DNA of 64,000 nt from Patescibacteria group bacterium. GTDB taxonomy: Bacteria; Patescibacteriota; Patescibacteriia; JAXHNJ01. This document shows, one piece after another, positions 3,657-45,024 of this stretch (its first letter is position 1; each line of letters begins with the position of its first letter). The DNA lies in assembly GCA_043812155.1 (NCBI GenBank), contig JBDRMK010000017.1, positions 146,509 to 210,508 of the forward strand, in the 5' to 3' direction. The position numbers and the translations under genes are program-made. The notes beneath the pieces are model-generated. The model had not been told where the DNA came from. It did not search any database and saw nothing but the letters and a program-made list of their open reading frames with translations.

Positions 3657-3848
3657 TTAGAAATCTCGGCGTCTTCCACCACCGCCACCAGTACGGTTGT
3701 TCCGTCTCTGGCGATGGCAATCACGGCAGTAAACAGGGCGGGTGCCATCAGGTTCGAAGGGTAGTTCCGTGATTTGAGCGCCGCATCCAGCGCATGTCCA
3801 ATTGCCTTGGTACATTTTTCTCTGACCAAAGCCTTGGGAATCATCCAT
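3657..3848 (-). CDS. CxxC-x17-CxxC zinc-ribbon domain protein
   Basis: WTCAGCGAQITELPFEPDGTRPVYCRDCHRQRR matches the CxxC-x17-CxxC ribbon signature, followed by a Gly/Arg-rich tail. The stop leaves room for the 3578 hairpin; the overlapping alternative frame runs through that hairpin. Confidence 0.5.
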   Translation of the reverse strand: MDDSQGFGQRKMYQGNWTCAGCGAQITELPFEPDGTRPVYCRDCHRQRRNNRTGGGGGRRRDF

Positions 3849-3985
3849 TGTAATGACCTTTTGTATGCTGCTCGCCTTTATCCTTGCGGATTTAAACTAG
3901 CAGAATACCTTACTTATTAATGCTTGAAGTGTAGCATAACCAAAGATTATGTCAAGGCCTGTTCTACAAAGGCCATAATCAAGTT

Positions 3986-4026
3986 ATTTTATAAAAAATA
4001 GGGGCAAGACTCGAAAGTCTTGCCCC
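3986..4026 (-). terminator. rho-independent terminator of the LysM gene
   Basis: Perfect 11-bp stem GGGGCAAGACT/AGTCTTGCCCC with a U-tract on the minus strand, about 40 nt after the stop at 4068. Confidence 0.6.
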
Positions 4027-4067
4027 TGCGAAAGTTAAAATGTGCATCCAAACTAGGCGCTTGGATT

Positions 4068-5337
4068 CTAGCAGTCGCCGGGCTTCTCCTCGGCCGGTCC
4101 CTCGACGAGAATGCCGAACACGGTCTTCTTGTCTCCTGTCCGGAAAATGATCTGTACGTCGTCGACGCACAGATACACACCCGGAATGGGACGAACATCG
4201 ACGATCACGTCGTCCCCGCCGCCGAGCTTACGGAGAACTATTCGCCCTATATCCGTGATGGTCGCTCGGACGAACTTCGGAATGTCATCCGACTTCGCCG
4301 CGGGCTCGGTCACTGCCGATTCGGGCTTTGACGATTCCGGCGCGGGCGTCTCGGTGACGACCGGCCAGACCTGTCGGGGCGTCTCCGGCGTGAAGGACGG
4401 CGTGCCGTCCTGACGCGGCCGGATCTGTGTCTCCGGCAGAGGCGAGTAGCCCTCTCCCCGACGAACATCGTTACCGCAGAGCATCAGCGTGATGCGGAAC
4501 GTTCCGTCGGAAAGGAAGCATTGCCAGGCCGGTGTCCATTTGGGAAGATCCTTGAATGCCGGTTTGTCTTTGAACTCAACGCGCATCTTCCCGCGGACAT
4601 CCACGGGAACGATGCGTTCGATGGCCACGGCGGGAAGCTTCTCGCTCTCCCCAACGGTCATGCCACGACGTTCGTCCCGGTACTGCTCGGTGAAGTGCTT
4701 GACGGCCGACTCAATTGTCGGTAAACCCCCTTCCACTACCGCCGGACCGGAGTAGGGATTCTCACGTTCCCGTCGCTGTTCCGTCGCCTTGTGAACTTCG
4801 CGTTCGTTCTCGCGGCGTGAACGTTCCCTCTCGAGATCATCCTCAGCTCGCTTTTCTCCCCGCCGCACTATTGCCAGCATAATAATTAGGATAATCACGG
4901 CGGCAAGCAGGAAGACGATACCGAATATCCAACCCACTGGCAAGCCGGAAGATTTCTCTTTGCTCACCACAAAGGGTATCACGGGTACCGTCTTTACGGG
5001 CTGAGGGTCGCCGGTGCGGTCCACTTCCGCGATGATGCGGAATAACTTTACCAGCGAAGCGGGTACGTTGAGCTCATCGCCCGGTTTGATCACATCCGGA
5101 TCCGCTAACTGCGGATTGGCTGCGACCAGTTCGAGCCAGAGCTGCGGCGACCCAAAGGCCACCTGCCACTGACCCACGCGATCCTCGGTCGAAACGATGT
5201 AACCCGTAGGTGCTGTCGGCCCGCTGATAAAGCATCCCGAAAGGACGCTCGACCCACGGATCGGCCTGCACCGGGGCACCGCTGACCAGGAACAGCGTCG
5301 CCAGCAACAGCATGACACTGATGCACCGCTGTACCAT
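4068..5337 (-). CDS. signal-peptide + LysM + TM-anchored protein with an apparent +1 frameshift (or sequencing error) near 5235
   Basis: Signal peptide MVQRCISVMLLLATLFLVSGAPVQA in frame B (start 5337, RBS GAGGAGG). The LysM-like block (YIVSTEDRVGQWQVAFGSPQLWLELVAANPQLADPDVIKPGDELNVP), a TM helix and a charged region lie in frame A. Removing one G from a GGG run joins the frames. Local GC is about 58%, versus about 45% in neighbouring genes. Confidence 0.5.
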
Positions 5338-5593
5338 GTTGGTACCTCCTCGGTTAAAAACCTTTGGCCGCTGCGACACCATGCCGCAGCCGCCTGGAGG
5401 AAATTTTCCTTTTTCAAGGTACGTTCCTCCCCGGAAAGCTTATCTTATATAAGATCTCTAGGGAAGACTGAAAGCCAATGTTTCAGACCATCCAAATAAT
5501 GGAGTAGATACCTTGTCTTGTTAAAGTTACAAAGAACCTACCACCCTATCACAAATTTGAGAATTTGTCAATACCTGCTATAATCTATTCATT

Positions 5594-6574
5594 ATGAATA
5601 AAAAGATCGCCATTTTCGCCGCCATCGCCATTATGTTTGCCGCTTTCTTGTGGGCCTTTGACGGCGTGGTCCTGACCCCTTGGGTTTTGGACTTAGGGCT
5701 TTACGATGTCCCGGTCTTTGTTTTTATGCTGCACGCGGTGGGAGCGGTTTTTTTAGTTTATTTTCTTATTACCAGAAAACACGAGTTTAAAAATTTAAAC
5801 AAAAATGACTGGCTGGCTTTTTTGCTGGTCGGGATTTTCGGCGGAGCAATCGGAACCATGGCGATAATCGGCGCTATTTCCCGCGTCCATGCCAGCCATC
5901 TTAATATTTCCGTAGTTTTAATCCTGCAAAAACTCCAGCCGATCTTTGCTATCTTGCTCGCCTATGCCTGGCTGCGCGAAAGGCCGAAAAAAATCTTTTA
6001 TTTTTGGGCTTTGATGGCTTTAATCGGCAGCTATTTTCTGACTTTCGGTTTTACTAAAGCCAACTTGTCCGCCAATGGCATGTTAATCCCGGCTCTGCTG
6101 GCCCTGCTGGCCGCTTTTTCCTTCGGTTCGTCCACAGTTTTTTCCAAAAAAGCGGTGACGAAAATCAGCCATGGCTTGGGCACAGCTTTAAGATTCTATA
6201 TTACGACCGGCGTGATGCTGCTGATTATTTCCTTTGTTTCTATTCTTAACGCCGGCGGAGTTAATACCAGCTACGCCGGCTTTGCCGGTTTTTCTGTTAT
6301 AAACTGGCCGCTGATCGGCGCCTTTACCGTCATCGCCCTGACTACCGGCGCTACGGCCATTTTTATCTATTACTGGGGTTTGAAAAGAGTGCTCGCCTCC
6401 CGTTCCACTATCTATGAACTGATGTTTCCAATTTCTTCCATTATCCTGGAATATCTTATCCACAAAAAAATTCTGGACTTGGGCCAATGGTTCGGCGCCA
6501 TCATAATAACCGCGGCTATTATTTCCATTGTCCGGCTGAAAAGTAACGAGAATAAAATAGAAACAACGAATTAA
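5594..6574 (+). CDS. DMT/EamA-like 10-TM transporter
   Basis: 326-aa polytopic membrane protein with two-repeat DMT-like topology. Confidence 0.55.
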   Translation: MNKKIAIFAAIAIMFAAFLWAFDGVVLTPWVLDLGLYDVPVFVFMLHAVGAVFLVYFLITRKHEFKNLNKNDWLAFLLVGIFGGAIGTMAIIGAISRVHASHLNISVVLILQKLQPIFAILLAYAWLRERPKKIFYFWALMALIGSYFLTFGFTKANLSANGMLIPALLALLAAFSFGSSTVFSKKAVTKISHGLGTALRFYITTGVMLLIISFVSILNAGGVNTSYAGFAGFSVINWPLIGAFTVIALTTGATAIFIYYWGLKRVLASRSTIYELMFPISSIILEYLIHKKILDLGQWFGAIIITAAIISIVRLKSNENKIETTN

Positions 6575-8443: not shown

Positions 8444-8923
8444 TTAGACTATGATCGTGCCGCGAACGATCACCGCTTTGACCACAGAGGATTTCCCCCA
8501 AGGCAGATTTGCTTCTCCCGCGTCCGTGCTCGAACCGCTTCGCATTTCTTCGCGAATCAGGTTCCTGGCGTAGAGTGCCGGCGTGATGGAGGAATTGATA
8601 TTCTGAACGGCGACGTCATTTCCGATAATCACAGGGTTGCGCCCCCATATGGCTCCGACCACATTCACGACGGCGTGCTTCTCGGTATTCGTCGGCGAGA
8701 AGACGGAGGACGACGTCCTGATAGCGATGGTGTTTCCTTCGGCGATGGTGAGGTTGACCGGCATCTCGGCCGCGACGGCGATCTTACCTTCGCTGCCGTC
8801 ATTGACCGCGAGAATGCCGATCGTGGCGAAATTCGGCTCGGCGCATGACATTGCGTACGAGCACGAAGACATGAGCGCCATTGTAATGACAATGACGAAT
8901 AGGGGAAGTTTGAGTCGATTCAT
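8444..8923 (-). CDS. secreted lipoprotein (hypothetical)
   Basis: Signal peptide with lipobox LMSSC, RBS AAGGAGAG. Local GC is about 54%. Confidence 0.5.
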   Translation of the reverse strand: MNRLKLPLFVIVITMALMSSCSYAMSCAEPNFATIGILAVNDGSEGKIAVAAEMPVNLTIAEGNTIAIRTSSSVFSPTNTEKHAVVNVVGAIWGRNPVIIGNDVAVQNINSSITPALYARNLIREEMRSGSSTDAGEANLPWGKSSVVKAVIVRGTIIV

Positions 8924-9114
8924 AGAATGACTCTCCTTTCTCCTTTGCTAAAAGCCAAGAAGGCAAAACTCTTATGAGCTGCCGAGGCTAAAGATGTGAC
9001 CTATAACCACCAGAAAACCGGATTAACCTCCTTAAGGTATCAGTTTTCTGGACCTTTAATGAGCGAGAATTGCTAATATTATAGCAAAAATATATTTGAA
9101 TGGTCAAACAAGCA

Positions 9115-9200
9115 TGCATTTAAATCCCAAATCACAAATAACAAATCTCAAATAATATTCAAATTCCAATGACCAAAATTCTAAATTCAAAAACAGAACC
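9115..9200. repeat. AT-rich dispersed repeat (AAATTCCAATGMCCAAAAT family), copy 1
   Basis: About 85% identity to 45740-45790. Reverse-complement homology to 23670-23730. Confidence 0.6.
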
Positions 9201-9235
9201 AGTAAAAAATTAGCAATTACTCCAAGCTCTCAGTA

Positions 9236-9530
9236 TACGTGGGGGGTCTCCACCTTCGCTCTTCACTTTGTTCAGAGCTTCGGCGGACAGGCGGGGGCAA
9301 AATGCTTTGCTACTTTTGCCTGCCCGCCTCTGGCAGGGTTACAAAAGTAGAAACATATTGGCACAGACAAAAAATATAACGGGAGATAATCAAAAAAGAC
9401 TGTCTACCCTTCGAGACTCAGGCTTCGTCCTCGCACCTCAGGGTGACAGTTTTATTATTTTAGTTCTTGGAGCCTGCCCTGAGCGGCGTCGAAGGGCTGC
9501 CAGAAAGAACAAATATACAGAGTAATAATA
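9236..9530. other. structured GC-rich intergenic region (degenerate REP-like hairpins or ncRNA)
   Basis: Several strong hairpins (CAGGCGGGGGCAAAA...TTTTGCCTGCCCGCCT) and CGAAGGGC/CCTTCGAG motifs shared with the REP-like family. No conserved ncRNA motif recognised. Confidence 0.3.
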
Positions 9531-9601
9531 TAATAACTCACCCTTGCCAAGCCCCAAAAAATCCCCTAGAATAAGGAAGTTAATCAATAACAACTTACGA
9601 T

Positions 9602-10741
9602 ATGTTTAAAAAACTATTTTTAATAATCTCACTCATTTTTTTCCTCCTGCCTTTGACCGGCCAGGCCAAGGAAAAAGCGACTTTTTATTACGGCTATTCG
9701 TGCCCCCACTGCAAAAATGTGGAAGAATTCATAAAAGACAACAACGTGGAAAGCCGGCTGGACGTTAAAATTGATAAAAAAGAGATCTATCTCAACCGCG
9801 ACAATGCCAGCGCCTTCCAAGCCATCTGCAGTGATTTTAATATTCCCACCAACCAAAGAGGCGTGCCATTCTTGGTCTGGGGCGACCAATATTTTCTGGG
9901 CGACGCGCCGATCATCAGTTTTCTGGAAGATAAATTAAAGGAAACTGACGGCCTTCAAAATAATAATATCAACACTAGCCAAGAAAAAATCTACAACCTT
10001 CCCTTGATCGGCAAAGTGGATCTCGGGAAATTTTCCCTCCCGGTTCTTACTTTGGTCGTGGGAGCGGTTGACGGCTTCAACCCCTGCGCCATGTGGGTCC
10101 TGGTTTTTCTGATCGGCGCCCTTTTAGGTCTTTCAAACCGCAAGAACATGTGGCTTATCGGCCTGACTTTTATCGGCGCCTCCGCGGCTGTTTACTATCT
10201 ATTCCTGGCCGCCTGGCTTAATTTATTTTTGTTCATCGGATATATTAGAATCGTGCAAATCATCATTGGCGCTTTAGCTTTATTTGTCGGCGCTTATTAT
10301 TTAAGGGAATACTGGCAAAAAAGAGGGCAGACAGAGGCGGAGTGCAAAGTCGTCAAAGGCGAAAAAAGGACAAAAATTATCGGCCGTATCAACCAGATCG
10401 TGGAATCAAAAAAAATCTTCTACGCCCTGGTCGGCATCGTGGCTCTCGCTTTTGTCGTCAATCTTATAGAACTCGCCTGCTCCATTGGTTTACCGGCTAT
10501 CTATACCCAACTTTTAACCTTGAATGATCTGCCGAAATGGCAGTATTATCTTTACCTGTTTTTCTATATCATCATCTTCATGCTGGACGACATGATTATT
10601 TTTACGGCCGCCATGCTGGCCGCCAAAGCGACCGGATTAAGCGGCAAATACTCTAAATTCTCCGAGCTTGTCGGCGGCCTGCTAATTTTCCTGATCGGCG
10701 TCTTACTGATCTTAAGGCCGGAGTGGCTGATGTTCGGTTAA
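9602..10741 (+). CDS. thiol-disulfide oxidoreductase fusion: secreted thioredoxin-fold (CPHC) domain + DsbD/CcdA-like membrane domain
   Basis: Signal peptide, then YGYSCPHCKN redox motif. C-terminal polytopic domain has Cys in TM segments (GFNPCAMWVL, ACSIGLP). Confidence 0.55.
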   Translation: MFKKLFLIISLIFFLLPLTGQAKEKATFYYGYSCPHCKNVEEFIKDNNVESRLDVKIDKKEIYLNRDNASAFQAICSDFNIPTNQRGVPFLVWGDQYFLGDAPIISFLEDKLKETDGLQNNNINTSQEKIYNLPLIGKVDLGKFSLPVLTLVVGAVDGFNPCAMWVLVFLIGALLGLSNRKNMWLIGLTFIGASAAVYYLFLAAWLNLFLFIGYIRIVQIIIGALALFVGAYYLREYWQKRGQTEAECKVVKGEKRTKIIGRINQIVESKKIFYALVGIVALAFVVNLIELACSIGLPAIYTQLLTLNDLPKWQYYLYLFFYIIIFMLDDMIIFTAAMLAAKATGLSGKYSKFSELVGGLLIFLIGVLLILRPEWLMFG

Positions 10742-32694: not shown

Positions 32695-33258
32695 ATGAGA
32701 AAAATACTCTTGCTCGCGATTCTCGCCCTTTTCATTCTTCCCCTTATGGTCTCCGCGCAGAGCCCCTGCCTGGAAACCTGGGTCAGCCGGCATCCCGGAG
32801 AAACTCCGCTCATGCAGTGGTCGCCCGCTCCGGCCTGGACCAATCAAGCTCCTCTGGAAATCGGCGCCACTACTTGCCAAGAAGGCGTCAGCCTCTTTGA
32901 CCAGGTTTGGCGCGGACCGGATTCGGCTTCTTGGATCATCAATGTCTATGTTTATCGCGCGGCTTTGAACAGCGGATCGTTTTACATCTATGTGACGGCT
33001 GATTCCAGCGCCGCCGGCGTTCTCGCCCTGGATCTGTCAAACGCTTTCGGATTTTCCGACCGCTGCAAATGGTCAAGCGGCCACTCCCTCAACCTGAAGA
33101 ACGTACCGGAATTTCAGTTCGATCCGGAACATCCTTACTATCTACGGGTAGTGATCGCCTCAAACAGCCACGCGGTCTGCGCCTTGCGCTTCTGCGCCGA
33201 CGAAACGATCGGCGTCGAGCCCACCAGCTGGGGAATAATCAAGGGGATTTACCGGTAA
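32695..33258 (+). CDS. secreted Cys-containing hypothetical protein
   Basis: Signal peptide MMRKILLLAILALFILPLMVSA, RBS GGAGG. Local GC is about 56%. Confidence 0.5.
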   Translation: MRKILLLAILALFILPLMVSAQSPCLETWVSRHPGETPLMQWSPAPAWTNQAPLEIGATTCQEGVSLFDQVWRGPDSASWIINVYVYRAALNSGSFYIYVTADSSAAGVLALDLSNAFGFSDRCKWSSGHSLNLKNVPEFQFDPEHPYYLRVVIASNSHAVCALRFCADETIGVEPTSWGIIKGIYR

Positions 33259-39128: not shown

Positions 39129-42100
39129 TTAAGGAATAATCAATTGCCAGCCGATTTGAATAACGCCAGGATTAGTGGACAAAGTCGGATAAACGGATTT
39201 ATTCGCTTCAATAATCTTGGTGTAATCGCTTCCCTTGCCGTAGAATCTTTCGGCAATCTTCCATAATGAATCGCCGGCGACCGCTTGGTATCTGACGCCC
39301 GAAGCAAACTGATAAACAGTCGGCAAAGACTCGACCGCTGATTTTTCCTGGATGAAATCCACGGCGTTGGAAATTCTTGAGGCCTCGCCCGATGAACTGA
39401 AAGCCTGGGTCGTAACGCTGTGGCTGCCTTCCTGCAAATCGGAAAGCGGCAAAGTGTAGGCAAAAGAAGCGGTATTGTTACTGACGCTGTTGGTGACATT
39501 AAACTCGCCGACATATTCACCGTCCACGTAAACCTTGATCAAAGAATCATTGTAAGCGACACCGCGAATGATGACTGTCGGGTTATCACCATCAGTGAAA
39601 ATGGGTTTTAAAAGCGTCGGGGTGATGTAAGGTAAGTCCACGGTGAAGGTGATTTTCGGCGAACGCTCGGAATAAACGCCGGCCGTGTTTCTGGCAATGG
39701 TATAAACGGTATGAGTCCCCTTGTTTAAATTACTCTTTAACTTATAAGCGAAAGAGCCAGTGCCGGAAGTATGGTTAGTGCTTAAAACCGTTCCGATCAT
39801 ATCGCTGTCAATAAAAATAAAGATGGTATTATTTGAGCGAGCCAAGCCGGTGATCGTCGGTAAAACCGTATCAACCGTTGAATTATCCGTAGGATAAATC
39901 AAAGTCGGTGAAGCCAGATAAACTTCCTCCTCCGATTCTTCAGCTGCTTCCTCGTTGGTTGCGAAAGTCGCGTCCGCGTCAAAAGTGGTGGTGTTGCCCG
40001 TGCTTAAAACTTCATAATGATAAGTGCTGCCGGCGGTCAATCCAGTGATAGTGATGGAGTGGCTGACGGTTAAATTACTGTCGTATATTTCACTACCGTA
40101 AGCGGTGGTCAAACCGTATCTGACTTTGGAATCGGCGGCGTGATTGGTTGTCCAGGTCACCTTGACCGAAGTCGTGCTTAGGGCTTCTGACTGGACGTTG
40201 GTAATAACTGTGGGCTCTAAAGTTGAAGTGGCAAAACTCTGGCTGGAATAAACGGATTCGTTGTTTGCCCGGTCTTTGGCCACTGGCTTGACATAATAAG
40301 TCTGGCCGGCGGAAAGGCCGGTTAAAGTCGCGGAATGCGTCGTGGTTAAATTGGAATCTTCGGTCGTGGTATTGCCCAGACTGTCAGTCAGGCCCCAGGC
40401 AACCTGCGTTTTTGTCGCTTCATCTGTTTGCCAAGTCACCACGGCGGTAAAAGTGGTGGTATCAATATCAAAATTAGAAACCGTGGCCGGAATCGTATCC
40501 TTTAAAACATAGAAACCGTCATTCAAAACTTCCCTGTAATTGCCGGCTGTGTCATAAACCCGGAAAGAAACATAATTTGTCCCTTGCTGTAAACCGCTAA
40601 AATTCACGGCCCAGGGCGTGGTATAAGAAGTTGCGTCATCCGTATAAATATTGGTCCAGCTAAGAATATCGCTTCCGCCCTGACTGGTGCCGATGGCATA
40701 CTGGGCGTAATCCAAAGGCGCGCCGCCGTTGGAAAGGAAAGATACCGGATAAGTCGTGCCGGCTGTATTGCGCCAGGTATCATCTCCGGTCTGATTATTT
40801 ACGACTTCCGGTGAAGTCACGTCTACTTTATAGGGCCCTAGATCCAAAGTCGCGCCGGCATCAGCGGCAACATCATCGCCGTTATAGGCCTTAACATGCA
40901 AATACCAACTCCCCTCGCTGGTCGCGGTTAATTCTTTGGTGTCTGAAGACCATTGGGTTTCTGTGTCGTTAAAGACGTATGTTTCATTTTGGTTCCAGAC
41001 ATAACGATAGTATTGGACTCCGCCGGCCCCAAAGCCGGCTTCATTGGTGAATGTAAAATTTAAATCATTTGTCCAAGCACTTTCTGTCCCATCTGAAGTA
41101 ACATCAGCGGCAGCCGCTAAAGTATATTTAGCTTCGCCGGCAATGGCGCCGTTTTCTTCACTATCGCCATTTCTGGTTTTGGCGTCAAAAGTATATTCGG
41201 TGTTGGCGACTAATCCGCTTTTCTCCCAGGTATTGGTCTGCAGCCAGCCGGAGTTGGTGGCCGTGGCGCTTTCAGTAAAATATATCCCAGAAGTACCGGA
41301 AGCTAGATTGGAAATTAACCCTTTACTAGAAACAGTAATAGCATTTTTGCCTACTGAATCAAATGATAAACCAGTTGGAGATTCAATGGAAGTATAAACA
41401 CTCCGATTATCAGTATTATCCGTGTTACAGGAATTTTGCGCCTGAAGATACCGGGTATATTGTGTGTTAGCGGATAAAGAATTTTCCTGCCAAGAAACAG
41501 TGTTAGCCGCCAAATCGCCGGATTTATTATTATTACCCGTATCCATTACCCGATAGTTAGCTTCATCAGAAATATCTTCCCAACTCCAGGTGATTGAACT
41601 TTCAGTCTGGCTAGAATGTCCAAGATAACTTCCTTCAGGTGACACTGGCATACTAACTAAAGGATTAACCGTAATAGTTTTTGTTAAAGAATCATAATAA
41701 TCTTCCGAAGGAAAAGGGACAACAACTCTGAATTTGATGGTTTGAGTACCGGCTGAGTTCCCATACACCGTCTTACTCCAAGTTGCTGTTTCAGGACTAG
41801 ATGAGCCATAATACGTGCCTGATGAAACCTTAATAGGCGTTGAAGTTGTCATCGCACTGCCGTTTACTAAACCAAGATACTCGGTTGAAGTAGTACAAGT
41901 CGTTCCCGGTGCACTGTCTCTAAAATATCCGGAAAAAGTAAATGAGGCACCTTTGCAAATCGTCTGATCTGAAGCCGGTGCCGTGACAGTAACGGTATAT
42001 GGTTCCGTACAAGTAATTGCCGCTTGCACAGTCGATATTTTAAAGTTAAATATAAAAAATGATGTAGCCAAGCCAATGAAAGTCAAAAACACCGTGAAAA

Positions 42101-42362
42101 AGCTCAAGGCGTATTTTTTGTAGGTTAAATACCGGGAATAAGAAACAATAAATTCGCCTTTTTCATCCCGGCCGGCTAAACTGGAAAAACTGTCATAAGG
42201 GAGATTTTTCAGGAAATGGGGCAAATAAGCCAGACTGAATAGGATTTCCTGAAAAATGACTGGCAAACACTTAAGACAGCGCTTTATCCCTTTTGGTGTT
42301 TCATTAAAGCACTTTAACCGCTTTTTATGGGCATTGTAAGTTTTTATTAGCAAATTATCCAT
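39129..42362 (-). CDS. giant cell-surface protein: N-terminal TM anchor, multiple FN3/Ig-like domains, conserved Big-like module, C-terminal LysM
   Basis: 1077 aa. FN3 segment and the C-terminal 250 aa are paralogous to 33350..36880. The LysM tails are about 85% identical at nucleotide level. Confidence 0.75.
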   Translation of the reverse strand: MDNLLIKTYNAHKKRLKCFNETPKGIKRCLKCLPVIFQEILFSLAYLPHFLKNLPYDSFSSLAGRDEKGEFIVSYSRYLTYKKYALSFFTVFLTFIGLATSFFIFNFKISTVQAAITCTEPYTVTVTAPASDQTICKGASFTFSGYFRDSAPGTTCTTSTEYLGLVNGSAMTTSTPIKVSSGTYYGSSSPETATWSKTVYGNSAGTQTIKFRVVVPFPSEDYYDSLTKTITVNPLVSMPVSPEGSYLGHSSQTESSITWSWEDISDEANYRVMDTGNNNKSGDLAANTVSWQENSLSANTQYTRYLQAQNSCNTDNTDNRSVYTSIESPTGLSFDSVGKNAITVSSKGLISNLASGTSGIYFTESATATNSGWLQTNTWEKSGLVANTEYTFDAKTRNGDSEENGAIAGEAKYTLAAAADVTSDGTESAWTNDLNFTFTNEAGFGAGGVQYYRYVWNQNETYVFNDTETQWSSDTKELTATSEGSWYLHVKAYNGDDVAADAGATLDLGPYKVDVTSPEVVNNQTGDDTWRNTAGTTYPVSFLSNGGAPLDYAQYAIGTSQGGSDILSWTNIYTDDATSYTTPWAVNFSGLQQGTNYVSFRVYDTAGNYREVLNDGFYVLKDTIPATVSNFDIDTTTFTAVVTWQTDEATKTQVAWGLTDSLGNTTTEDSNLTTTHSATLTGLSAGQTYYVKPVAKDRANNESVYSSQSFATSTLEPTVITNVQSEALSTTSVKVTWTTNHAADSKVRYGLTTAYGSEIYDSNLTVSHSITITGLTAGSTYHYEVLSTGNTTTFDADATFATNEEAAEESEEEVYLASPTLIYPTDNSTVDTVLPTITGLARSNNTIFIFIDSDMIGTVLSTNHTSGTGSFAYKLKSNLNKGTHTVYTIARNTAGVYSERSPKITFTVDLPYITPTLLKPIFTDGDNPTVIIRGVAYNDSLIKVYVDGEYVGEFNVTNSVSNNTASFAYTLPLSDLQEGSHSVTTQAFSSSGEASRISNAVDFIQEKSAVESLPTVYQFASGVRYQAVAGDSLWKIAERFYGKGSDYTKIIEANKSVYPTLSTNPGVIQIGWQLIIP

Positions 42363-42507
42363 CCTTAATAATTACCACTAAATATAGCTAGCTAAAATTG
42401 GGCAATTAATACGCCCTTATATATATTATACGCTAAAATTAGCCATTTGTCAAGAGCAAATAAGCTAAAACTTGATATTTATTCATATTTAATTTATCCT
42501 TTTAAAT

Positions 42508-42762
42508 ATGAGCAAGGATAAAAAAAGAAAATTTCAAGCTATTATTAACCAAAATCAGTTTGTTAACCTTCAGAATTCTAAAAATACTGAATCTTCAAAA
42601 ATAAAAGAAACAACAGATAGATTTTTAAGAAGTGATCTGCTAAAGGTATTCGGTCTCGCTATTAGTATTATTGCCATTTATATTGTTCTATTTTTTTATG
42701 ATTCAAACACAGGAAAAATTACTGTTTTTGCGGAAAAAATTTCTAATGTACTTATAAAATAA
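42508..42762 (+). CDS. small membrane protein (hypothetical)
   Basis: 84-aa ORF with one TM helix in a 28% GC segment. Weak support. Confidence 0.3.
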   Translation: MSKDKKRKFQAIINQNQFVNLQNSKNTESSKIKETTDRFLRSDLLKVFGLAISIIAIYIVLFFYDSNTGKITVFAEKISNVLIK

Positions 42763-42890
42763 TTTTGCGACACATTATTTTGTCTAATAATAGCGAAATA
42801 TAGTAATTTATATCATCTATTTTCGGAAATATTGTTAATTTTACATGGATTTTTAATGAAAATTCATCTAATATTAGCCTCAAAATGACC

Positions 42891-42912
42891 AAATGTTCCA
42901 CGTGGAACATTT
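42891..42912. promoter_or_regulatory. perfect 22-bp palindrome AAATGTTCCACGTGGAACATTT upstream of tRNA-Arg
   Basis: Read directly from the sequence. Lies 14 nt upstream of the tRNA start. Candidate operator or protein-binding site. Confidence 0.4.
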
Positions 42913-42925
42913 TTAAAACCTAATA

Positions 42926-42997
42926 CGCCCCCATAGTTCAACGGATAGAACAATCCCGTCCTAAGGGATGGATCTGGGTTCAATTCCTGGTGGGGGC
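42926..42997 (+). tRNA. tRNA-Arg (anticodon CCT), no encoded CCA
   Basis: Acceptor GCCCCCA/TGGGGGC, anticodon loop GTCCTAA, T-loop TTCAATT. Confidence 0.75.
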
Positions 42998-43039
42998 ATA
43001 ATAATCATCGATTCTCGTAGTGAACACCGCTATTCGCGA

Positions 43040-43150
43040 ATGGCGGGGTGAACGAAGATCCCGCAACCCAAAGTGGTGCGGGACTGGTGGGGGCATATCC
43101 CCTGCCCTAAATTATTATTAATCAGCAGGGGATTAAACAAATAATACGGG
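43040..43150 (+). other. tRNA-trailer element with a copy of the tRNA-Arg(CCT) acceptor 3' strand (ACTGGTGGGGGCAT), then a 9-bp hairpin
   Basis: Hairpins CCGC...GCGG and CCCGCA...TGCGGG, then CTGGTGGGGGCA (43084-43095) matching the tRNA 3' end, then ATCCCCTGC...GCAGGGGAT. Confidence 0.45.
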
Positions 43151-43152
43151 GA

Positions 43153-43200
43153 TATAGTACAGTGGCAGTACGCGGCATTCGCACCCGCCTCCCGGAGTAC
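43153..43200 (+). other. partial tRNA-like 5' fragment (acceptor + D-arm + anticodon-arm-like) with no T-arm
   Basis: GGGGATATAGTACAGTGGCAGTAC-GCGGCATTCGCACCCGC shares GCATTCGCA with the adjacent tRNA-Ala anticodon arm. Confidence 0.35.
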
Positions 43201-43273
43201 GGGCCGTTAGCTCAGTTGGTAGAGCGTCGCATTCGCATTGCGAAGGTCGGGAGTTCGAATCTCCCACGGTCCA
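43201..43273 (+). tRNA. tRNA-Ala (anticodon CGC), no encoded CCA
   Basis: G3:U70 identity pair, anticodon loop TTCGCAT, T-arm GGGAGTTCGAATCTCCC. Confidence 0.8.
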
Positions 43274-43365
43274 TTGCCCGTACGGCGGTCAGGTTGCCGA
43301 GACTCAGGGAAGACTCCCGGTATCTCCACCAAATATTAGCAGTTAGGCTCATTGTGTGAAAATTT

Positions 43366-43443
43366 GGGGTTTCCCGCCACAAAAAACAAGAAAAGGGGCA
43401 GGACCCCGCCAGCTGGCGGTGGCGAGTCCCCTCGGGTCCACCA
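43366..43443 (+). repeat. 78-nt structured repeat ending in ...GGGTCCACCA (tRNA-Ala acceptor 3' strand + CCA), copy 1
   Basis: About 90% identical to 44125-44202. Outer stem GGGGTTTCCCGCCAC/GTGGCGAGTCCCC, inner hairpins GGGGCAGGACCCC and palindrome CGCCAGCTGGCG. Confidence 0.6.
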
Positions 43444-43468
43444 AGTATATATTTTACATTAATAGATC

Positions 43469-43741
43469 ATGAAATTTGACGCATTTCTACTTGTATATTA
43501 TTTTGCCGGTGTTATTCAAGATTTTTTGCTAACACTAAATTGGCGCTATGTCGCAAAAGAAAAGGCGTTGTTAGCTTCTGTATTTTTATTTTCTACGATG
43601 TTCGTAACAATGGTTGTTTTATATAATATCTTTACTCGGTTAGATAACGAAAGAAGTATATTAGCTATAATAGTCTATTCACTAGGTGTTTGCACCGGCA
43701 CATTTTTAGGAGTAAAAATGAAAATTGGCCATAAATTGTAA
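43469..43741 (+). CDS. small 3-TM membrane protein (hypothetical)
   Basis: 90-aa ORF in an AT-rich segment between tRNA-associated repeats. Confidence 0.35.
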   Translation: MKFDAFLLVYYFAGVIQDFLLTLNWRYVAKEKALLASVFLFSTMFVTMVVLYNIFTRLDNERSILAIIVYSLGVCTGTFLGVKMKIGHKL

Positions 43742-43785
43742 ATTTGTATTAATTACTCTATAATGTGCTTACATTATCAATAATT

Positions 43786-44032
43786 CTGGGCCTCTAGCTC
43801 ATTTGGTATCCCTGGCCCTATGGTCCGGCCCCTGGCAGAGCCGGGATCCCGGTTAAAAAACCAGGGAGACCCCGGCGCAAAGCGCCAGGGGGAGCGCTGT
43901 AAATTAAACAATTTATTAATATAATTTTGGGCCTCTAGCTCATTTTCCGCCAAAGGCGGATCCGCGCTCCGTCGCCCAAGCTATGGAGCGTCGGCGACCT
44001 CTGGCGGAGGATAGAGCGCCCCGCACTTTTTT
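43786..44032 (+). other. two truncated tRNA 5' fragments (GGGCCTCTAGCTCATTT...) within a GC-rich structured spacer
   Basis: At 43789 and 43930 the first about 20 nt resemble a tRNA acceptor/D-arm. The full tRNA-Ala at 44033 begins GGGCCTGTGGCGC. Confidence 0.4.
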
Positions 44033-44105
44033 GGGCCTGTGGCGCAACTGGTAGCGCGCCTCCATGGCATGGAGGAGGTTGTGGGTTCGAGACCCATCAG
44101 GTCCA
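44033..44105 (+). tRNA. tRNA-Ala (anticodon GGC), no encoded CCA
   Basis: G3:U70, anticodon loop ATGGCAT, T-arm GTGGGTTCGAGACCCAT. Confidence 0.8.
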
Positions 44106-44124
44106 GAAAAGTGCGGGGAGATGA

Positions 44125-44202
44125 GGGGTTTCCCGCCACAAAAAATTAAAAAAGAGGCGGGACCCCGCCAACTGGCGGTGGCGATCCCCCTGAGGTCCAC
44201 CA
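44125..44202 (+). repeat. 78-nt structured repeat ending in ...GAGGTCCACCA, copy 2
   Basis: See copy 1. Lies immediately downstream of tRNA-Ala(GGC). Confidence 0.6.
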
Positions 44203-44204
44203 AT

Positions 44205-44240
44205 AAAAAAACAGCTTTTTCCGTTAATAGCTGTTTTTTT
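44205..44240. terminator. bidirectional hairpin terminator
   Basis: AACAGCT/AGCTGTT stem flanked by A7 and T7. Confidence 0.6.
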
Positions 44241-44242
44241 GT

Positions 44243-44857
44243 TTATTTATGCGCGTACAAAGTAGGATGCATTATATAACCGATTTCCGTCAAAAAACCA
44301 ATTTGACAAAGCATCGGTTTCAATATTTCCCCGGTTTTTTGGCCCATACGCTCATGATAACAGGCGATAGCAAAATTTTTAGTAATTTCCAGCATTTTTC
44401 GCATACCTTCAAAAGCTTCCAATTCAGAGCCTTCGATATCCATTTTTACAAAATCTATTGTAATTAACCCAATTTTAGTAATTTCATTATCAAGGGTAGT
44501 TGTTTGAATTTTTATCCCTGCTGACTGATTATTTACAATCGATTTTGAATTATTTGGAAAAAAATTTGTTTGGCCTATTTTATTTAAAATTGCTTTATTT
44601 ATAAGAATAATATTACTAAAGTTTGAATTTTGTACATTTTTTTGCAAAATATTAAAATTTTGCGGATCCGGTTCAAAGGCAATCACTTTTCCTTTTTTAC
44701 CCACTTTTTTTGCCGCCATAAGAGTAAAGCCGCCTAAGTATGCCCCAGCGTCAATAATAATATCCCCTTCCTTTATCTTATATTTTCTTAGAAAACCATA
44801 ACTTGTAACCGCGGTGCCGAAATAATCCAGGCTTTTTTTAATAAAGACACTAATCAT
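44243..44857 (-). CDS. FkbM-family SAM-dependent methyltransferase
   Basis: IIDAGAYLGGFTL SAM motif and FkbM-domain pattern. About 33% GC, lower than surrounding genes. Confidence 0.7.
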   Translation of the reverse strand: MISVFIKKSLDYFGTAVTSYGFLRKYKIKEGDIIIDAGAYLGGFTLMAAKKVGKKGKVIAFEPDPQNFNILQKNVQNSNFSNIILINKAILNKIGQTNFFPNNSKSIVNNQSAGIKIQTTTLDNEITKIGLITIDFVKMDIEGSELEAFEGMRKMLEITKNFAIACYHERMGQKTGEILKPMLCQIGFLTEIGYIMHPTLYAHK

Positions 44858-44995
44858 AATTATAAGTATACTCCTTGTTTGAACTTATAAAAATGGTTTA
44901 GTAACACCCCCCCCTCGAAAAAGATATCTTTGCTAAAAACTCTTGACTTCATGTTCTAATCTGCTCCCCCCTCGCGTTTTTTATTATTTGAATAT

Positions 44996-45024
44996 TTGAC
45001 TTAACAGTAATATACGCATATAAT
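44996..45024 (+). promoter_or_regulatory. consensus sigma70 promoter TTGACT-17-TATAAT for the csoR-trxA operon
   Basis: Exact hexamers with 17-nt spacing, about 70 nt upstream of the CsoR start. Confidence 0.6.

Follow-up and report, generated by a model that had tools for sequence, protein, structure and literature searches.

Does a sharply bounded patch of GC-rich DNA in a bacterial genome record a recent import, and what does such a patch encode? We explored this question in a 64,000-nucleotide stretch of contig JBDRMK010000017.1 from a Patescibacteria group bacterium (hereafter the window, meaning the whole 64-kb stretch analysed), where a minus-strand gene of 1270 nt at 4068-5337, encoding a membrane protein with a LysM module, has a GC content of 0.602 against 0.447 for the remainder. 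The GC-rich patch is one self-contained gene. We think it probable that the island is a single transcription unit of a rare Patescibacteria family, inherited vertically, and that the copy found here carries a one-base insertion or a consensus error; such a unit would comprise its own promoter, a structured leader of ~200 nt, a gene of 422 codons and an intrinsic terminator. The compositional step itself is unambiguous. When the island was compared with other regions within the window, none of the 1229 other segments of equal length was as GC-rich, the highest elsewhere being 0.535, and over 300-nt intervals GC stands at 0.59-0.65 across ~4050-5400 and at ~0.41-0.50 in the flanks (0.41-0.47 before the island, back to 0.41-0.44 after it). 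An earlier, sequence-only reading had described an island of about 58% GC between a zinc-ribbon gene and a drug/metabolite transporter (DMT) gene, and both the island and its neighbours, the latter through PF23477 and EamA matches, were borne out. At this locus lies an unremarkable copy, broken or mis-assembled, of a gene family that is uncommon and uncharacterised.

A search with the protein repaired by removal of the surplus base (422 aa) returned 19 close homologues of 369-456 aa; 18 are distinct relatives (397-456 aa), while the 19th, the 369-aa P0001, is the window gene itself. Every named homologue is labelled 'Patescibacteria group bacterium' or Candidatus Kerfeldbacteria. An exhaustive profile search of 1.84 billion representatives gave ~25 full-length clusters together with more distant proteins, which keep the same plan (LysM, transmembrane (TM) helix, linker, GPPxVxGG...C[GM]N) and, where named, belong to Patescibacteria (Nomurabacteria, Paceibacterota). 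Among the named matches of the homologue and profile searches there was no relative outside Patescibacteria, and viral contigs held no relative of the LysM protein. Judged from these searches, the family appears to be rare, restricted to Patescibacteria and uncharacterised. A phage origin was considered and rejected, given the empty search of viral contigs, a single weak PHROG match by way of the LysM module, no PADLOC hit and no structural match in BFVD. We found no paper on this LysM family or its leader, although LysM proteins as such are common in the candidate phyla radiation (CPR), where they possibly mediate host attachment (PMC7739484) and accompany VirB1-like hydrolases (PMC12102498).

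How the family sits in other genomes bears directly on the origin of the island. We fetched 18 loci carrying family members and compared each gene with its flanks: in all 18 the family gene is the GC maximum, with a gene-minus-flank difference of +0.076 to +0.243 (mean +0.158). Host GC ranges from 0.29 to 0.57 over these loci, the gene exceeding its flanks even in hosts of 0.55-0.57, and gene GC tracks flank GC (r=0.80, slope 0.57). In hosts of 0.33-0.39 GC, the GC content of third codon positions (GC3) is 0.62-0.72 in the gene and 0.22-0.31 in neighbouring open reading frames (ORFs). When the excess was split by back-translating each protein with the codon usage of its host, the amino-acid part came to +0.04 to +0.10 and the codon-choice part to +0.04 to +0.16; for the window gene the two contribute about half each, +0.076 and +0.063. 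Non-coding DNA adjoining the gene is AT-rich like the host (0.21-0.31 in L002, L003 and L010). The closest homologue, P0002 on contig L021, occupies the same locus, divergent from EamA and with PurN beyond, and since the LysM proteins of the two contigs are 59% identical (EamA 84%, PurN 86%) the gene must predate their split. Similarly, L010 and L002 are syntenic, with the gene 83% identical and the flanks at 86-96%. High GC thus appears to be a standing property of the family and not the trace of a recent import, and the gene, on these comparisons, appears vertically inherited in this lineage and fast-evolving.

The sequence-only reading had suggested that the island came from outside, for instance from a host or neighbour of high GC, and an island lately acquired from such a donor and not yet drifted to host composition would account for the sharp step, for a codon choice that is atypical beyond what the amino acids impose, and for the different genomic contexts in which the family is met across lineages. 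We nonetheless regard this as improbable: the age implied by the L021 synteny, relatives confined to Patescibacteria, the GC maximum at every locus, and host-like non-coding DNA right up to the gene all speak against it. Likewise, no direct or inverted repeats and no insertion scars bound the island; there is no mobility gene or integrase and no adjacent transfer RNA (tRNA) at the window locus, the nearest tRNA lying 18.5 kb away; and none of the 18 loci offers a donor lineage in which gene GC equals genome GC. A further test came from synonymous changes polarised in the L010/L002 pair with L003 and L014 as outgroups. Pooled over the LysM gene and a GC-rich partner gene, they amount to 20 GC>AT and 14 AT>GC, which fits equilibrium and rejects a free decay of 4.7:1 (p=0.001). 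Two observations weigh against our account here. The LysM gene alone shows 9 GC>AT to 3 AT>GC, which would be compatible with decay; and the lack of shared synteny across lineages, together with a Rep protein and a serine recombinase ~2 kb upstream of a distant relative in L020, leaves room for occasional transfer within the phylum.

A related possibility is that the gene travels within the phylum as a mobile cassette, by transformation or recombination, with GC-biased gene conversion keeping GC3 high; biased gene conversion has been linked to GC3 in bacteria. The partner gene is relevant in this respect. In four loci (L010, L002, L003, L014) a secreted, beta-rich protein of 232-244 aa with no Pfam match is encoded divergently ~330-370 nt upstream of the LysM gene, its fourfold-degenerate sites (GC4) at 0.60-0.68 GC where the flanks have ~0.25; no counterpart was found in the window. 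This two-gene GC-rich module has at least two left flanks, an L10 ribosomal-protein gene in L002/L010 and an unrelated 186-aa ORF in L003 (L014 has the same module; the flank comparison covers L002, L010 and L003), and in unrelated contexts the LysM gene comes with a conserved promoter-like motif, a leader and a terminator of its own. In the L010/L002 pair, moreover, protein identity is 0.83, below the 0.86-0.96 of the flanks, yet synonymous sites diverge by 0.15 where the median is ~0.29, and so low a value could mean that the cassette was exchanged more recently. On the other hand, synteny is kept in both close genome pairs and no direct sign of recombination was seen; we hold the cassette to be a minor possibility, although a somewhat better one than import from outside. 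Other neighbourhoods are varied: L013 and L024 have a different secreted beta-rich ORF (282-283 aa) upstream on the same strand, and in the higher-GC Patescibacteria L004, L019, L023 and L024 the gene lies in long same-strand runs of small Pfam-less ORFs, with DsbA-NrdR-RNR downstream in L019 and L024. These higher-GC flanks may be part of a conserved cluster, or else of a mobile region.

Why, then, is the gene divided between two reading frames? The sequence-only reading had joined a signal peptide in frame B to a LysM module in frame A by removing one G from a GGG run at about 5235. A frameshift of one extra base is indeed present, but the break lies ~30 nt downstream of that run in the direction of the gene: the join at ~5235 yields ...RPFG-CFISGPTAPTG..., which fits no homologue. 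Frame B fits the homologues through ...QRADSTYG (GGG = 5205-5203), part 1 of the coding sequence (CDS), which ends in DPWVERPFGMLYQRADSTYG, matching P0004 among others (MVQRWITAMLLLVTLVVASGVQVSAEPWVERPHGQLIQRSDGTYG; compared stretch EPWVERPHGQLIQRSDGTYG), and frame A resumes at YIVST (TAC = 5201-5199), continuing as YIVSTEDRVGQWQ. The homologue consensus is unbroken at this point, ...QR(A/S)DG(S/T)(Y/F)G-Y(I/V)V(S)..., as is the alignment across signal peptide and LysM, ...P.G.L.QR.DGS.G-YIVS..DR.GQWQVAFG.... At the DNA level homologues have TAY GGG TAC GTC or TTC GGT TAT GTC, and the window has TAC GGG T TAC ATC; the site is TACGGGTTAC with the extra base and TACGGGTAC or TACGGTTAC without it. 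The extra base cuts the signal peptide off from the remainder of the protein.

Of the three explanations that had been offered for the break, a pseudogene, a sequencing error or a slippery site, the first two remain and the third is very unlikely. Programmed +1 frameshifting at GGG-U, with one base skipped as in prfB, would agree with the sense of the required shift (+1, at a short G/U run) and with a gene body otherwise intact over 377 codons. However, all 18 full-length homologous proteins align continuously across the site, and each of nine homologous genes read at the DNA level is a single open frame there (four are printed, with GGG TAC or GGT TAT). The local context at 5202-5205 offers no stop or hungry codon, the next 0-frame codon being TTA (UUA), neither a stop nor demonstrably rare, and frame B staying open to a stop 43 codons on; nor is there an SD-like (Shine-Dalgarno-like) stimulator within 15 nt upstream (...GACAGCACC), as judged by eye against prfB. 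Since the break is absent from homologues and nothing in its context promotes slippage, recoding has very little to recommend it. Beyond the site frame A keeps every invariant residue over its 377 codons without a second lesion, as expected of a lesion that is very recent or else an artefact; the window's other long genes, the longest of 1176 codons, show no break, which indicates that the assembly is not generally indel-prone. The comparison with homologues therefore points to a lineage-specific, very recent one-base inactivating insertion or to an assembly or consensus error, and not to programmed recoding. Against the former it counts that the organism itself may lack the break, which is seen in the assembly. 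Neither the product of this gene nor the EamA protein beside it is on record as an exact match, so these look-ups gave no other assembly of the same population in which the extra base could be compared. The NCBI call of this gene, P0001, is 100% identical, 369 aa long and begins at an internal GTG; public annotation therefore treats as an intact protein a copy that is frameshifted or mis-assembled and has lost its signal peptide.

Upstream of the start codon the family shares a conserved element. Between the window and L021 the intergenic DNA has changed less than synonymous sites have, and L022 has parts of it as well; altogether, a structured leader of ~140 nt, with its elements in the same order, is common to eleven family loci whose proteins are ~40-60% identical. 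Four pairings, P1 to P4, make it up. P1 has a 5' arm of the form YUCCCC, an inner hairpin that varies between genomes and a 3' arm, GGGGAGGAG, that looks like an SD sequence; of its 16 pairs, 86-92% of cells (one pair in one sequence) are paired and 6-9 pairs are changed on both sides. P2 is a 9-bp hairpin present in 11 of 11 leaders, its sequence differing by lineage, with both-side changes in five of the nine pairs, and a spacer separates it from GGAGG. P3 would join the anti-SD, CCUCC(C) across loci, to the invariant SD, and P4 holds the start codon: it appears in 8/8 single-sequence folds with 97.7% of cells paired, and in four loci GUACC/GGUAC has become GUAGC/GCUAC, codon 2 changing from Val to Leu along with its upstream partner. 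Leader fold z values against shuffled sequences run from -3.0 to -7.4. Over 34 pairs, a MAFFT alignment has 84.9% of cells paired, compared with 41-52% when partners are slid, and both-side changes in 13/34; such values were reached by 0-2 of 500 shuffles (0 on three of five measures). An alignment fitted with the covariance model, which leans towards the structure, gives 87.4%, 16/34 and 0/500, with slid-partner pairing at 40-52% over both alignments. Unaided, RNAalifold recovers P1 and part of P2. Set against this, P3, although paired in 85.5% of cells across the 11 sequences, shows no both-side changes, because the SD is invariant, and appears in four of eight minimum-free-energy (MFE) folds (window, L001, L003, L014); the sample, too, is 11 sequences, some from related genomes. 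The leader is nonetheless a conserved structured RNA, not previously described and supported by covariation. Rfam gave no relevant match at E<=1 for the window region and four other loci, and we found no comparable regulatory RNA element in the literature for the phylum.

Two wider roles for the leader were examined and set aside. A regulon is not indicated, as neither the window nor ~300 kb of related loci holds a second copy, only reverse-strand echoes of P1; the covariance model gave one weak independent match, at the leader of L023. A leader peptide is likewise not indicated, no conserved small ORF lying upstream of P1 and the upstream ORFs (uORFs) after the SD look-alike varying in length and presence. 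Transcription would start from a putative sigma-70-type promoter: a TTGACA-N17 motif is similarly placed in L021, L022, L007, L003, L014, L002 and L010, so that it can be read in 8 of the 11 loci (it is not clear in L001, L013 and L004), and a consensus scan missed it in the window because the -10 hexamer matches at three of six positions. An EamA promoter-like motif on the plus strand (5557-5584, TTGAGA-16-TATAAT) overlaps it back to back, and the overlapping motifs (5543-5600) come within 25 nt of the EamA start codon. At the other end, the terminator stem begins ~40 nt past the TAG stop; the perfect stem, described earlier as 11 bp, proved to be 12 bp. The 449-codon frame-A ORF, which starts at TTG in the leader, runs through the leader and the signal-peptide region in the wrong frame and into the gene body. 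The corresponding uORFs in L021 and L001 stop within or just after P2 (by eye), so the long frame here is probably a chance opening in GC-rich DNA. It is also the only route by which the frameshifted copy could give a long product, one that would lack the signal peptide.

The order of domains in the repaired product, signal peptide, LysM, TM helix, charged helix and a conserved C-terminal region, follows from the homologue alignment, hydropathy and AlphaFold models (mean predicted local distance difference test, pLDDT, 86.4 for the frame-A product of 377 aa, and 89.8 for 232 aa of the predicted cytoplasmic part). On this architecture the sequence-only reading was right, and also in finding the C-terminal domain unfamiliar: the two predicted cytoplasmic domains have no recognisable relative. 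Hydropathy shows two hydrophobic segments, residues 1-26 and ~135-157, and there are 4 lysines plus arginines among the 30 residues that precede the TM helix, as against 10 after it, an asymmetry by which the LysM module would lie outside and, behind a single TM helix, the remainder inside; the C-terminal two thirds are accordingly predicted to be cytoplasmic. In the model a beta-alpha-alpha-beta LysM (frame-A numbering: strand at 2, helices 11-14 and 19-28, strand at 43; pLDDT 75-92) is followed by a 58-residue helix formed by the TM segment and the charged linker, then by a conserved loop, NPYSGPxVxxGGLPT, and a helix packed against a long curved antiparallel sheet, on which the invariant Cys-x-Asn of LMLCGNDV sits; the chain ends with a Pro/Glu linker, which is disordered, and a beta domain of six strands. 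The assignment of the LysM module meets one difficulty, in that PF01476 matches the window protein over profile positions 22-43 only, with 13.2-13.3 bits (E ~0.08), below the gathering threshold of 20.9. It matches below threshold in 14 of 20 family members, while the distant P0076 (21.5 bits) and P0123 (24.0 bits) pass, and the NCBIfam SafA LysM model matches 20/20 members below its cutoff. The family profile, however, retrieves solved LysM chains (SafA 1.3e-12, 6ve2_O 6.7e-12, Kbp 1.4e-9, Ecp6 2.9e-7, TsaP 1.8e-5), and its positions ~43-95 retrieve hundreds of multi-LysM proteins (checked on P0032 and P0034, with 9-10 Pfam LysM repeats). By homology, then, the module is expected to bind peptidoglycan. 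All features discussed are collected in table 1.

Table 1. Features of the LysM locus in the window, with the corresponding leader and partner-gene coordinates in related loci
Feature	Sequence	Coordinates	Strand	Remarks
Treble-clef zinc finger gene	window	3657-3848	-	PF23477, E=4e-14
Intrinsic terminator	window	4000-4027	-	12 perfect pairs (7 G-C), loop UUCG, then ATTTTTTATA (U-run)
Frame A ORF, 449 codons	window	4068-5417	-	open reading frame; overlaps frame B
CDS part 2, frame A, 377 codons + TAG	window	4068-5201	-	all invariant family residues intact
C-terminal six-stranded beta domain	window	4107-4277	-	approximate sub-part
Predicted cytoplasmic alpha+beta domain	window	4362-4766	-	approximate sub-part; Pro/Glu linker next
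Charged helix	window	to ~4770	-	approximate sub-part
TM helix	window	4866-4934	-	approximate sub-part
Rest of LysM	window	5058-5201	-	approximate sub-part
Frame B ORF	window	5074-5382	-	holds ATG 5337 behind GGAGG; encodes typical signal peptide
Frameshift site TAC GGG T TAC	window	5202-5205	-	one surplus base (T5202 or a G within 5203-5205)
CDS part 1, frame B, codons 1-45	window	5203-5337	-	signal peptide MVQRCISVMLLLATLFLVSGAPVQA, then DPWVERPFGMLYQRADSTYG up to LysM start
Leader	window	5323-5571	-	includes promoter-like motif
Hairpin P4 (GGUACC AAC AUG GUACA)	window	5330-5346	-	contains start codon and codon 2
Shine-Dalgarno GGAGG	window	5345-5349	-	invariant in 11 leaders, 7-9 nt before ATG
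Hairpin P2 (GGCGGCUGCG...CGCAGCGGCC)	window	5366-5394	-	enclosed by P3
Anti-SD CCUCC, P3 5' arm	window	5396-5400	-	pairs with true SD in the MFE fold
TTG start of 449-codon frame-A ORF	window	5408-5417	-	TTG 5417, 8 nt after pseudo-SD
Hairpin P1	window	5425-5467	-	5' arm UCUUCCC; 3' arm GGGGAGGA, SD-like 'pseudo-SD'
Putative sigma-70-type promoter	window	5543-5571	-	TTGACA 5571-5566, 17 nt, TG-extended TAGGGT 5548-5543; inferred from sequence
EamA/DMT transporter gene	window	5594-6574	+	E=4e-30
Leader	L021	3659-3807		
Leader	L022	480-597		
Leader	L007	9872-10015		
Leader	L001	9867-10015		
Leader	L010	9864-9991		
Leader	L002	9880-10009		
Leader	L003	9873-10015		
Leader	L014	9887-10018		
Leader	L013	9888-10015		
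Leader	L004	4938-5072		
Partner gene	L010	8910-9644	-	
Partner gene	L002	8949-9683	-	
Partner gene	L003	8933-9631	-	
Partner gene	L014	~9026-9703	-	

Taken together, these features suggest how an intact member of the family might work. The protein probably serves, under translational control, as a scaffold or sensor that spans the membrane and is anchored to the wall: its signal peptide would be cleaved, the single LysM module exported to bind peptidoglycan, and the one TM helix would extend into a long charged helix and then into new cytoplasmic domains, one alpha+beta and one small and beta, so that the protein could anchor to or sense the cell wall and couple it to a cytoplasmic partner. 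Both this role and the cytoplasmic location of the C-terminal part are predictions. Synthesis would be gated after transcription, with P3 and P4 hiding the SD and the AUG. Were the segments named a to d in order, a:b (P1) and c:d (P3) would pair in the closed state, and pairing of b with c instead would free the SD; the SD-like decoy locked in P1 may thus serve as an alternative partner for the anti-SD, and what tips the leader from one state to the other might be temperature, a protein, or RNase III cutting the P1 duplex of 16-23 bp.

A bolder proposal, which we put forward tentatively and with clearly less confidence than the account of the transcription unit, is that this wall-sensing receptor or scaffold has an mRNA selected twice, once for a four-segment leader switch (CCCC / GGGGAGG decoy / CCUCC anti-SD / GGAGG SD) and once for a GC-rich, structured coding region. 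In sliding-window folds the mean z is -1.1 to -2.1 for five family genes and most negative, -2.9, for the partner gene, while seven neighbours range from -1.3 to +0.6, and negative values over coding regions hint at selection on mRNA structure. If the proposal is true, this would be an uncommon instance of a protein-coding gene that selection, and not recent transfer, holds off the base-composition equilibrium of its genome, in genomes down to 29-35% GC.

Elsewhere in the window, the most GC-rich ORFs after the LysM gene are 8444-8923(-) and 32695-33258(+), both of 0.56 GC (GC3 0.71 and 0.66) and both with a signal- or lipoprotein-like N-terminus and no Pfam match. An AT-rich stretch at 42000-45000 (0.31 GC at 42-43 kb) holds tRNA-Arg(CCT), tRNA-Ala(CGC), tRNA-Ala(GGC), small ORFs of 0.25-0.32 GC and an FkbM-type methyltransferase at 44243-44857(-), and resembles conventional foreign DNA more closely than the GC-rich island does.

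Patescibacteria are mostly uncultured, often epibiotic and reliant on cell-wall contact, and their envelope proteins are poorly understood. The present family couples a LysM module, peptidoglycan-binding by homology, to new predicted cytoplasmic domains, and its conserved leader offers a concrete, testable regulatory RNA in this phylum. Equating a GC island with foreign DNA fails here, a warning for island-based calls of horizontal gene transfer (HGT) in metagenome-assembled genomes (MAGs).

Parts of this locus resemble several known systems, none of them throughout. Horizontally acquired islands share with it a sharp compositional step confined to a discrete unit; yet the unit in the window is richer in GC and not in AT, has the size of a single gene, lacks mobility genes and repeats, is syntenic in a relative, and belongs to a family whose compositional offset follows it in every genome examined. 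In prfB, as in the window gene, one extra base must be skipped, but the window site is without the in-frame stop, the SD stimulator and the conservation in homologues. Leaders that sequester the SD are known from ROSE and fourU RNA thermometers, from translational riboswitch platforms and from RNase III-activated leaders such as that of adhE in E. coli. The family leader is like them in its predicted anti-SD:SD pairing, an AUG held in a hairpin, a position just ahead of a single gene, and covariation, and unlike them in an extra long P1 bearing an SD-like decoy, in having no Rfam match, no evident ligand pocket and no leader peptide, and in occurring so far with one Patescibacteria gene family. 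Among LysM proteins that tether envelope components to peptidoglycan (SafA, TsaP, YneA; PF01476) we see the same single LysM, exported to the wall (inferred for the window protein), with profile homology and a beta-alpha-alpha-beta model; the window protein differs in that its LysM is N-terminal, after a signal peptide that would be cleaved, and that a TM helix and ~265 predicted cytoplasmic residues with no known relative come next. YneA is a small protein with TM and LysM, and TsaP and SafA are without a cytoplasmic part of this kind. In its predicted general logic, with a LysM module that binds glycans outside the cell, one TM helix and an output domain in the cytoplasm, the window protein is reminiscent of the LysM receptor-like kinases of plants (CERK1, NFR1/5).

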